A stretch of DNA of 64,000 nt from Catajapyx aquilonaris (lineage: Eukaryota): the NCBI GenBank assembly GCA_000934665.2, contig JYFJ02002003.1, positions 1-64,000 on the forward strand, read 5' to 3'. Under the pieces are notes generated by a model that was not told the DNA's origin, ran no database searches, and saw only the letters and a list, made by a program, of their open reading frames with translations. A program made the translations under genes and the position numbers. Of this stretch, positions 860-3,800 are shown in pieces (positions within the stretch are counted from its first letter, which is position 1; the number at the start of each line of letters is the position of its first letter).

Positions 860-3800
860 GTAGTGGAGGAAGTCGGTTCCAAACTGGAGGCCGCGGCCGC
901 CCCGGGTTCTGCCCCGGGCAAGGACGGGGACGCCCAGGGGCCGCCCTCGGACCAGGCCAAGGCCGCGGAGGAGGCCAAGAAGAAGAAGAGGGGAAAGAAG
1001 AAGTCCGGTGAGTTCCCCCCTTCCCCACCTCCCTTTCCCGTCCCAACGTGTTCCCATTTTCCTTGCCATCTTTTTTTTTTTTCCCGTTCCTCACACTTTT
1101 TTTTTGTTGTGCTGAAAAGAGGGTATATATACACCTAGGCCTAGTTTATTTTTGAACCTGGTCCAACAGCGGGATGGGGCTTGGAGGGATTCCTTGCTGC
1201 TGAGCTGGTGTGTTGCAAGGGACGGAGACCGTTCGGTTCCGGAAGGTTGTGCTCGTTATTAGTTTAATCAGGTTTTGTTGCAGCATTACAGTGTAAGTGG
1301 TCGCCCACGGTTCAGTTGTCGCATCGTTCGTGAACTGTAAATTGAAATTAACATTACCGCACCATTTCAGTTATTCACAATCATAGTTTTGGTTATCTCA
1401 TATGCAAACGGCTAGCTTCATGTTTTTCGAGTAACTAGTATGGTAGATACTGTATCAGTGCTTCTTGCCTTGTTCGGGTAGGATTGAATTACATGCCCAC
1501 ACATTCAAGTGACCTAGTTTCGCAGCGGTGTATTACCTGGATTGTGCGAGAAGCTTTTTGTGTCGTCGATTTTTTATTTTTTGGTGTGTAATGGGAGCCA
1601 GTTTAAAGCGTGCTCTTTCTCTTTAACATTTGGCAGCTTTCCAAGAGCACATGGCTAGTGTCAAGTTAGTTCCTTGTATTTGGAAGTGATGATATTTGGC
1701 AGGAACATGGGTCGGTTCTTCATGCTGAGAGATGGTGTTGTTTAAAACGGGTTAATTCGCAATGTCTTCGCATTTCTTATGTTATTGTTATAAATTATTT
1801 ATAATTAAATTCAGAAATATTTTTGGAGTGATAATGACATATTTTTACAAAAACCACGTGCGTAATCATGTGGCAACATTTCATGATCATGAATACGGAC
1901 ATGATTAATGTTGTATCTAATTATGACTTCTCTTGATTGCAGGTAGTGAAGGAGGCGCGACAGAGGTTGTTGCTGGTTTGGATGAGGATCAAGGTGAGGC
2001 AGGTGAACCATTTAGGAAAGTAGAGTCTAAGAAAGGGGGGGAGGGCAGGAAGAAGGGTGGGGAGGGTAAGAAAAAGGAAGAGGGAGCAGGGGGAGGAGGT
2101 GAAGTCACTCCTGGGGTGAAAGCCGAAGGACCCAAAGCTGCAACCATGCCAAAGGCGGAGGACAAGACACTGCCACCGCTGCCTCCATTGCTGATGGAAG
2201 CGCAGTTGCCACCTGTTGGTGCACCAATGCCAATGGCTGGGGCACCACTGCCAATGGCTGGAGCACCACTGCCACCGTTTGGTGCACCACTGCTGCCAGT
2301 TGGGGCACCGCTGCCACCAGTTGGGGCTCCACTGCCTCTGATTGGGGCACCTATGTCACTGGCTGGTGGACCAATGCCATTGTTTGGTGCGCCATTGCCA
2401 CCAATTGGCCCTCAGACTCCACCAGCTGGGAAAGATGCTGCCCCAAAGTCTCCGACTCCAAAGGCAGCTCCATTATCACCAACACCAAAGAAGGCAGGTG
2501 CACCTATGTCACCAATTGCAAAGAAGGAGGCTGCTCCGTTGTCACCAGCAGCAAAGAAAGATGCTGCACCGGCATCACCAACACCAAAAGCAGCAGCTCC
2601 ATTGTCACCGGCAGCAAAGAAAGATGCTGCACCAGCGTCACCAACACCGAAAGCAGCAGCTCCACTCTCACCAACTCCCAAGAAGGATGCTCCAGCAGCA
2701 CCACTGGCACCAAAGGTGGAAGAGCAGAAGGCTGCTCCACCAGCACCAGTTGCAGTTAAAGCTGATGACAAGAAGGAAGTGGCACCCAAGTCACCGAAGG
2801 CAGAGAAGAAGGAGGCACCAAAGTCACCCACGCCTAAGGCAGAGAAGGGGCCAAAGTCACCTACACCCAAGGGAGACAAGGCTCCCAAGTCACCGACACC
2901 AAAGCCTGAGGAGAAGAAGGAAGCACAGGTCCAAAAGGTGGAGGAGAAGAAGGAGGCAGCACCTCCTGCGCCAGCCACACCACCCGCTCCGATTGCACCA
3001 GCCCCACCCTCCCCGGCTGCACCAGCTGCACCAATCGCAGCACCACCTGCACCAAGTGCAGATGAGAAGAAGGAAGTAGCACCAAAACCGGAAGATAAGA
3101 AGGAAGCACCAAAGTCACCGAAAGGCGATGAGAAGAAGGAAGCGGCACCAAAGGCTGAGAAGAAGGAAGCAGCGCCTAAGGCTGATGCTCCAAAGGCAGA
3201 GGCAAAGTCGCCCAAAGCAGACAAGAAGAAGAAGGAAGGAAAGCCTGAAGAGGCAAAGAAGGATGCCAAGCCCAAAGAAGAAAAGAAGGAAGCCAAACCC
3301 AAGGAGGAAAAGAAAGACGCCAAGCCCAAAGAGGAAAAGAAGGACGCCAAGCCTGAGGAAGCTAAGGATGCAAAGGCGGAGGTGGCTAAGAAAGAGGGTG
3401 AGGAAGCTCCAAAGGCTGAGGAAAAGAAGGAGGGTGAAGCGAAATCAAAGAAGTCGAGAAAGAAGAAGCAGCCTGCTGAAGGACAGCAAGCAGCGGCCCC
3501 TGGGGAGCAGAAACCAGGAGACCAGAAGCCCAAGGAGGGAAAGAAGAAGAACAAGAAGAATGCTCCAGCGGCGGAAGGGGCGCCTGCTGAAGGCGGTGAA
3601 GCAGTGGCGCCGGCCCCCGCTCAGGAGAAGAAGAAGAAGGAGAAGAAGAAGGAGCCCAAGAAGGAAGGGGCTCCAGGAGAAGAGGGTGCGGATAAGGGTA
3701 AGATGAGAAGGAGAAACGCCAAGAATGGAATGTTGTTGCATGATTGGAGCAAGGAAAAAGGAATGAAGAAGAGCATGGCCCCTCCCAGTTTTTGCGTTAA

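Follow-up and report, generated by a model that had tools for sequence, protein, structure and literature searches.

In PMC10808355, the N-terminal extension of MetAP2 is described as a series of alternating acidic and poly-Lys segments whose length and sequence vary between species, and in the human enzyme and Chaetomium MAP2 as disordered sequence ahead of the pita-bread core. According to the same paper, the extension binds ES27L and stabilises binding at the tunnel exit, and its removal by autoproteolysis shifts the position of the enzyme on the ribosome; the precise function of the extension is called poorly understood by its authors, and the remaining segments have no assigned function. 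Here we describe a MetAP2 gene from Catajapyx aquilonaris with a far longer version of this region. The gene lies in a stretch of 64,000 nucleotides (nt) comprising positions 1 to 64,000 of the forward strand of contig JYFJ02002003.1 (assembly GCA_000934665.2), hereafter the window, and contains, directly after exon 1, a stretch at 1943-3697, read here as one giant exon, that is a real, expressed, protein-coding part of the gene. In our preferred reading, to which we assign a probability of roughly 0.6, a single exon 2 with two competing donors gives rise to MetAP2 proteins of 540 and 1108 amino acids. Across 85 homologues of 400-700 amino acids, the N-terminal extension measures 43-254 residues with a median of 113, compared to 172 residues in the short form and 740 in the long form modelled here. 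The locus carries a lineage-specific enlargement, of exceptional size, of a region whose variability was established before.

The identity of the gene was established from its catalytic exons. The open frame 8368-8868, which contains exon 7, matched Peptidase_M24 (PF00557) at E 3.2e-21, and exon 7 aligned with residues 180-321 of the 478-residue human MetAP2 chain at E 1.8e-73 (1.1e-73 for the best-scoring truncated chain), whereas its matches to archaeal MetAP (1e-20 to 1e-21) and to Ebp1 (1e-12) were weaker, placing it closer to type 2 than to type 1 or Ebp1. In the alignment to the truncated chain, the motifs AAHYTPN, KIDFG and DCAFT, which we take to hold the catalytic His and two metal-binding Asp, are identical to those of human MetAP2. 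For the last exon, identity to MetAP2 proteins from ticks, crustaceans, amphioxus, corals and oysters is 82-87%, and the database searched with this exon held no protein identical to the window's own. The extension of the short isoform has four Lys blocks, as expected of MetAP2, and, judged by its sequence, the locus is a complete MetAP2 gene (peptidase M24A, type 2).

Five sequencing runs contain the giant exon, four of them DNA from the probable source sample (including the run designated X1) and the fifth, X5, a set of 32 million letters from a different sample and study. X5 contains 0.95 of the sampled giant-exon words. Over positions 1-11000 of the window, X5 carries nine GT..AG joints, eight of which fall within the MetAP2 gene, and DNA run X1 carries none of them. 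In the intron bins 1102-1835, 4772-5138 and 6974-8074, the depth of X5 is 0 and that of X1 about 33. The record of X5 gives no kind, and because of these joints and the zero intron depth the run is treated here as complementary DNA (cDNA). Its data are contigs, which are unfit for isoform ratios or for the definition of transcript ends.

The giant exon is transcribed, and the X5 depth over most of its length is similar to that of the other exons. Joint 1007>1943, which connects it to exon 1, is present at a depth of 67.2, and joint 3697>4339, which connects its far end to exon 3, is present at a depth of 115.9 and reaches 30 nt into exon 3. A third joint, 1993>4339, also at a depth of 67.2, leaves the giant exon at an internal consensus donor (CAAG/GTGAGG, exon end 1993) that the original prediction had overlooked; this joint and 1007>1943 occur in one contig each and, being of equal depth, are taken to belong to the same contig. 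Beyond the internal donor, 2050-3252 is covered by X5 contigs at a depth of 66 and 3223-3696 at a depth of 115.9, and little X5 depth remains in the next bin after the distal donor (3671-4037). The resulting gene structure is as follows.

851 to 1007, + strand: coding part of MetAP2 exon 1, from ATG 851 to the donor CCG/GTGAGT (sequence, X5 joint 1007>1943 and in-frame model).
1943 to 1993, + strand: shared 51-nt part of exon 2 (17 codons), which is the entire exon 2 of the short isoform (X5 joints 1007>1943 and 1993>4339).
1994 to 1999, + strand: proximal, internal donor GTGAGG (X5 joint 1993>4339, GT..AG, and sequence).
1994 to 3697, + strand: 1704-nt extension of exon 2 (568 codons), in the distal-donor form only (X5 contigs, open frame and codon-position tests).
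3698 to 3703, + strand: distal donor GTAAGA (X5 joint 3697>4339).
4339 to 4407, + strand: exon 3, a Lys block, with the acceptor common to both donors (both X5 joints end at 4339).
4485 to 4643, + strand: exon 4 (X5 joint 4643>5433).
5433 to 5549, + strand: exon 5, with the last Lys block and a PPSVP motif (X5 joints 4643>5433 and 5549>6790).
6790 to 6956, + strand: exon 6 (X5 joints).
8416 to 8844, + strand: exon 7, catalytic domain (Peptidase_M24 match and human MetAP2 alignment).
8921 to 9394, + strand: coding part of exon 8 up to its TAA stop codon at 9392-9394 (identity to MetAP2 proteins of animals).

The junction 4407>4485 is unlisted among the X5 joints and is placed by the first 69 unaligned letters of contig 11, a number that matches exon 3 in length.

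In X5, the joints 1993>4339 and 3697>4339, both GT..AG, connect two donors to a common acceptor, as is characteristic of an alternative 5′ splice site. Exon 2 would start at 1943 in either case. Use of the proximal donor would yield a 51-nt exon and the 540-residue MetAP2, and use of the distal donor would add 1704 nt in frame (568 codons), yielding the 1108-residue protein. Since the contig that enters at 1943 exits at 1993 to 4339, the short form retains 1943-1993 as a mini-exon. The coding part of exon 1 (157 nt) has a phase-1 end, 1007>1943 and 3697>4339 both preserve the reading frame, and each of the two isoform models reads in frame to one stop, at its end.

The long exon itself is stop-free over 1755 nt (585 codons), lies in a + strand open frame of 632 codons (1927-3825), and is bounded by AG at 1941-1942, preceded by a poly-pyrimidine tract, and by GT at 3698-3699, where the distal donor reads AAGG/GTAAGA. 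The coordinates of this exon and its phase-1 junctions at both ends had been given correctly in the original prediction, as judged from the frame, the splice sites and the in-frame models, and the two outer junctions that it proposed are the ones found in X5. None of 2000 first-order Markov simulations of the exon reached 584 open codons (mean 161, maximum 415), and the other five frames contain 5, 31, 11, 15 and 3 stops.

The sequence that follows the proximal donor is distinguished by a cluster of G-runs.

2035 to 2098, + strand: seven G-runs, G-quadruplex-capable, just downstream of the proximal donor; a candidate regulator of donor choice.

Within the 100 nt after donor 1993 there are seven runs of G3 or more, compared to none or one at each of the gene's seven other donors. 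Positions 2035-2062 fit a G-quadruplex motif, with a minimum free energy of -12.1 kcal/mol when the quadruplex is allowed and -1.4 kcal/mol when it is not. G-runs downstream of a donor are splicing enhancers, and this cluster may act as a switch for donor choice. A scan for bacterial sigma-70 promoters returned 0 sites, the bacterial model being irrelevant to an animal gene.

Directly behind the proximal donor, positions 1994-2049 have no X5 contig cover. The mean depth of 36.7 in bin 1836-2202 is what 50 nt at a depth of 67.2 and 153 nt at a depth of 66 would give, and the word share of 0.95 agrees with this hole, which in itself is no evidence either way. It could be explained by the G-quadruplex-capable G-runs at 2035-2062, by clipping during assembly, as assemblers clip short dead ends, or by an internal start. 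The last of these is the main alternative, which we consider unlikely and in which a promoter at about 1994-2050 would produce an alternative first exon, spliced 3697>4339 and translated from the following codon.

2146 to 2148, + strand: first in-frame ATG within the extension, context ACCATGC; the start codon if transcription began internally.

The product would be a MetAP2 of about 990 amino acids that lacks the residues of exon 1 and keeps most of the tail. An internal start would account for extension contigs that begin at 2050 with no letters ahead of them and for an exon 1 contig that runs through 1993 to 4339 unbroken, and ATG 2146, the first after 2050, is in frame, has A at -3 and is preceded by no out-of-frame ATG between 2050 and 2146. 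However, coding-type signals extend upstream of this ATG. The 21-nt period continues there, and three of the four differences that separate the 21-nt units at 2029 and at 2050 are synonymous third-position changes. A codon model trained on 2146-3696 gave 1996-2145 a positive score in the coding frame only (+8.8 bits, compared to -44.8 and -114.7 bits in the other two), and both flanking introns were strongly negative in all frames. From 1994 to 2146 there are 0 in-frame stops, compared to 2 and 6 in the other frames, and across the acceptor at 1943 the open frame fits the phase in which exon 1 ends. X5 is also without the first 67 nt of the coding part of exon 1, indicating that its contigs drop G+C-rich 5′ parts. 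The coding signals in 1996-2145 favour exon continuity, and we infer that the 1755-nt exon runs unbroken across 1994-2049. By the two-donor route and by the internal start alike, the extension of the resulting MetAP2 would be very long.

The translation of the giant exon, referred to below as the tail, is 19.9% K, 19.7% A, 19.0% P and 11.6% E; together with G these residues make up 78% of it, and it has no W, Y, C or H. It holds 26 Ser/Thr-Pro sites (15 SP and 11 TP) and seven KSP motifs, and the 568-residue insert is net basic, with 119 K+R and 84 D+E. Six modules can be distinguished, the first a G/K/E block resembling the ordinary MetAP2 charge block and the others as listed.

2194 to 2424, + strand: uncharged Pro-rich module, with LPPLPP and about nine 21-nt GAPLPxx heptads (heptads at 2207-2401).
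2425 to 2979, + strand: basic Ser/Thr-Pro-Lys module, with KSPTPK and LSPAAKK units and most of the 26 Ser/Thr-Pro sites.
2950 to 3060, + strand: Ala-Pro-rich stretch, overlapping the end of the Ser/Thr-Pro-Lys module.
3061 to 3444, + strand: Lys/Glu-rich module, with 27-nt KEEKKDAKP repeats at 3229-3353.
3445 to 3697, + strand: three more poly-Lys blocks with A/G/E/P spacers, resembling the ordinary MetAP2 extension of homologues.

The heptads, the SP/TP-K units (63-nt and 33-nt units at 2462-2904) and the KEEKKDAKP repeats are as the original prediction had described them, and its observation of synonymous divergence among the repeat copies was borne out for the 63-, 27- and 33-nt units, with less skew in the heptads. 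The two copies of the 63-nt pair differ at five positions, all five of them third-position and synonymous. The numbers of differing sites at the first, second and third codon positions are 6/10/42 for the 27-nt units, 4/4/17 for the 33-nt units and, with a weaker skew, 71/54/89 for the GAPLPxx heptads. In addition, all 18 Tandem Repeats Finder rows in the giant exon have periods that are multiples of 3. The giant exon evolves like coding DNA, and we infer that it is translated.

These data also bear on a reading in which the tail is intron DNA recently exonised through repeat growth, with little or no translation or with a product that is quickly degraded. The absence of relatives and of a family for the tail, described below, its extreme low complexity and a third-position make-up unlike the rest of the gene would fit such an origin, as would the long open runs in other frames of this purine-rich DNA (245, 208 and 402 codons). 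We nevertheless regard it as very improbable, given the synonymous bias between copies (all five differences in the 63-nt pair; 42 of 58 at third positions in the 27-nt units), the preservation of frame by every repeat period, a single frame that is open over the full length as in none of the 2000 simulations, and a depth comparable to that of other exons. We also regard as very improbable the reading originally proposed, a skippable cassette in which all of 1943-3697 is included or skipped entirely, for although both ends are in phase 1, the skip 1007>4339 would stay in frame and both outer junctions are present in X5, 1007>4339 is absent from the listed X5 joints (contigs drop rare variants and may miss a minor form) and the observed short form keeps 1943-1993 through the donor at 1993, so that the event looks like a choice between two donors and not like a cassette.

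Several observations weigh against the two-donor reading. No listed X5 contig links the proximal donor at 1993 to position 2050, and the sole contig with 1007>1943 exits at 1993, so that exon 1 and the whole extension are unseen in one transcript. The stretch is present in one cDNA-like run from one study. An estimate of isoform ratios from depth was rejected because the depths are inconsistent along the gene, where joints at 67 and 116 lead into an exon with a depth of 70.5. At third codon positions, C and A account for 7.5% and 36% in the giant exon (1945-3696) and for 32.6% and 15.4% in the catalytic exons (6790-9394), which shows that the giant exon has a separate mutational or repeat-growth history. 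Finally, a homologue search among proteins of 1023-2920 amino acids gave no relative of the tail with an E value of 0.001 or less.

Wider searches for relatives of the tail gave a similar picture. Against 1.84 billion representative proteins of all lengths, the tail returned 38 matches with E values from 1.8e-23 to at most 0.001; these were rejected as relatives, all six of the six inspected being unrelated proteins with xxGAPxx-type or other tandem repeats of their own and none of them a MetAP2. Pfam gave no family at E up to 0.1 for the 584-residue tail translation, and the ESM Atlas gave no usable match to the tail. No description of such a MetAP2 isoform was found in the titles and abstract beginnings of the open-access papers listed. 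As a separate observation, there are X5 contigs that match the tail only from 3223 on, and contigs of X5 and of DNA run X1 that match it only up to 3560, with unlike sequence beyond, indicating that loci or transcripts elsewhere in this organism share short Lys/Glu-coding stretches with the tail; the contig letters before 3223 read in frame with the tail.

An AlphaFold model of the tail from its single sequence, made without an alignment and to be taken with the usual caution, had a mean predicted local distance difference test (pLDDT) score of 37.7; none of the 584 residues reached 70, and secondary structure was absent. This fits an intrinsically disordered, low-complexity region.

Compared with the canonical MetAP2 extension, both ends of the insert resemble the charge blocks found there, whereas about 400 insert residues (the GAPLPxx, SP/TP-K, AP-run and KEEKK sequences) belong to module types unseen in the inspected homologues. 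The longest animal examples are the Penaeus MetAP2 isoforms of 611-618 amino acids, which likewise represent lineage-specific growth of the extension. In Penaeus, however, the extension (about 250 residues) consists of the ordinary acidic/poly-Lys module repeated five times, with no Pro/Ala/Ser-Pro tail, and the search of representative proteins reported no sequence likeness between Penaeus MetAP2 and the insert. Public proteomes contain 64 MetAP2-containing proteins of at least 831 amino acids. In all of the animal entries among them, further Pfam domains are present (vezatin, T-box, prolyl endopeptidase, helicase), and these entries look like merged models of neighbouring genes. The long entries in which M24 is the sole domain are those of fungi, a red alga, a flowering plant and a transcriptome of a marine eukaryote (mmetsp), and in the four that were inspected (two fungi, the red alga and mmetsp) the extra sequence is unrelated.

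The tails of neurofilament H and M are long, disordered side arms rich in Lys, Glu, Pro and Ala, with KSP repeats used by proline-directed kinases. The tail described here shares this composition, including its KSP motifs and Ser/Thr-Pro sites, and sits on an enzyme. The neurofilament-like character claimed for it earlier is one of composition only, with no Pfam family and no relative at the thresholds given above, and no intermediate-filament rod found by Pfam on the 584-residue translation; the rest of the gene is MetAP2, and the protein is not a member of the neurofilaments. Two further compositional analogies were noted. The C-terminal domain of histone H1 is a K/A/P-rich, basic, disordered region with S/T-P-x-K-like sites that binds nucleic acid, and the KKEE-type charged repeats of MAP1B bind a polyanionic surface. 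On these working analogies, the tail could bind rRNA or another polyanion.

Two further observations concern the transcripts of the gene downstream of exon 2. An X5 contig at 5521-6262 (742 nt, depth 18.3) continues past the exon 5 donor into intron 5, where the spliced joint 5549>6790 has a depth of 36.8. The read-through frame meets a stop two codons past the donor (5558-5560), and an A16 run lies at about 5770-5785. This read-through may represent intron retention or an alternative 3′ end, and such RNAs would encode the N-terminal extension and lack the peptidase domain. In a reading that we consider improbable, the same read-through in transcripts with the long exon 2 would give a large extension-only protein with no catalytic domain, which could act like the cleaved N-terminal fragment of p67 that protects eIF2-alpha. 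In the 3′ untranslated region, a 163-nt GT..AG intron at 9432-9594, 37 nt past the stop codon, is removed in X5.

The remainder of the window contains genes of other families, which, together with the MetAP2 matches, point to an invertebrate animal as the source; they are as follows.

11792-12304, 14211-15119, 16709-17191(-), 20765-21205, 30692-31132, 31935-32411(-), 51688-52197(-) and 53248-53700(-), both strands: at least eight fibrinogen C-terminal domain exons, of which one was tested (PF00147, E 9e-61) and the others were recognised by eye from shared motifs.
22026-23147(-), 23735-24826(+), 26582-27697(+) and 60668-61900(-): four single-exon frames of 364-411 amino acids for 7tm_7 chemosensory (gustatory-type) receptors, three with matches above the Pfam cut-off and one below.
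34973-35458, - strand: family 10 fucosyltransferase (E 1.5e-28).
42030-42773, - strand: VWA_N domain protein of the calcium-channel alpha2-delta subunit kind (E 3.5e-31).
55702-56829, + strand: TFIIE alpha (E 5e-14).

With regard to function, the insert would lengthen the charged arm that contacts ES27L, adding reach and further poly-Lys blocks, and its Ser/Thr-Pro sites, up to 26 in number, could let proline-directed kinases tune the charge of the arm, with the G-run cluster after the proximal donor as the candidate switch of donor choice. A more elaborate proposal, which we offer as improbable, is that the long form would be a regulated tether in which a Ser/Thr-Pro-Lys charge switch, controlled by phosphorylation, and Pro-rich docking heptads would let MetAP2, in certain cell types, move between ES27L on the ribosome and a different surface, polyanionic or cytoskeletal. 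If the two-donor reading is true, arms of 172 and 740 residues from one gene would constitute a natural experiment on arm length, charge and phosphorylation, and the locus would exemplify how alternative use of two donors can create a very large (1.7 kb) coding difference and how frame-preserving repeat growth can build a new disordered region.

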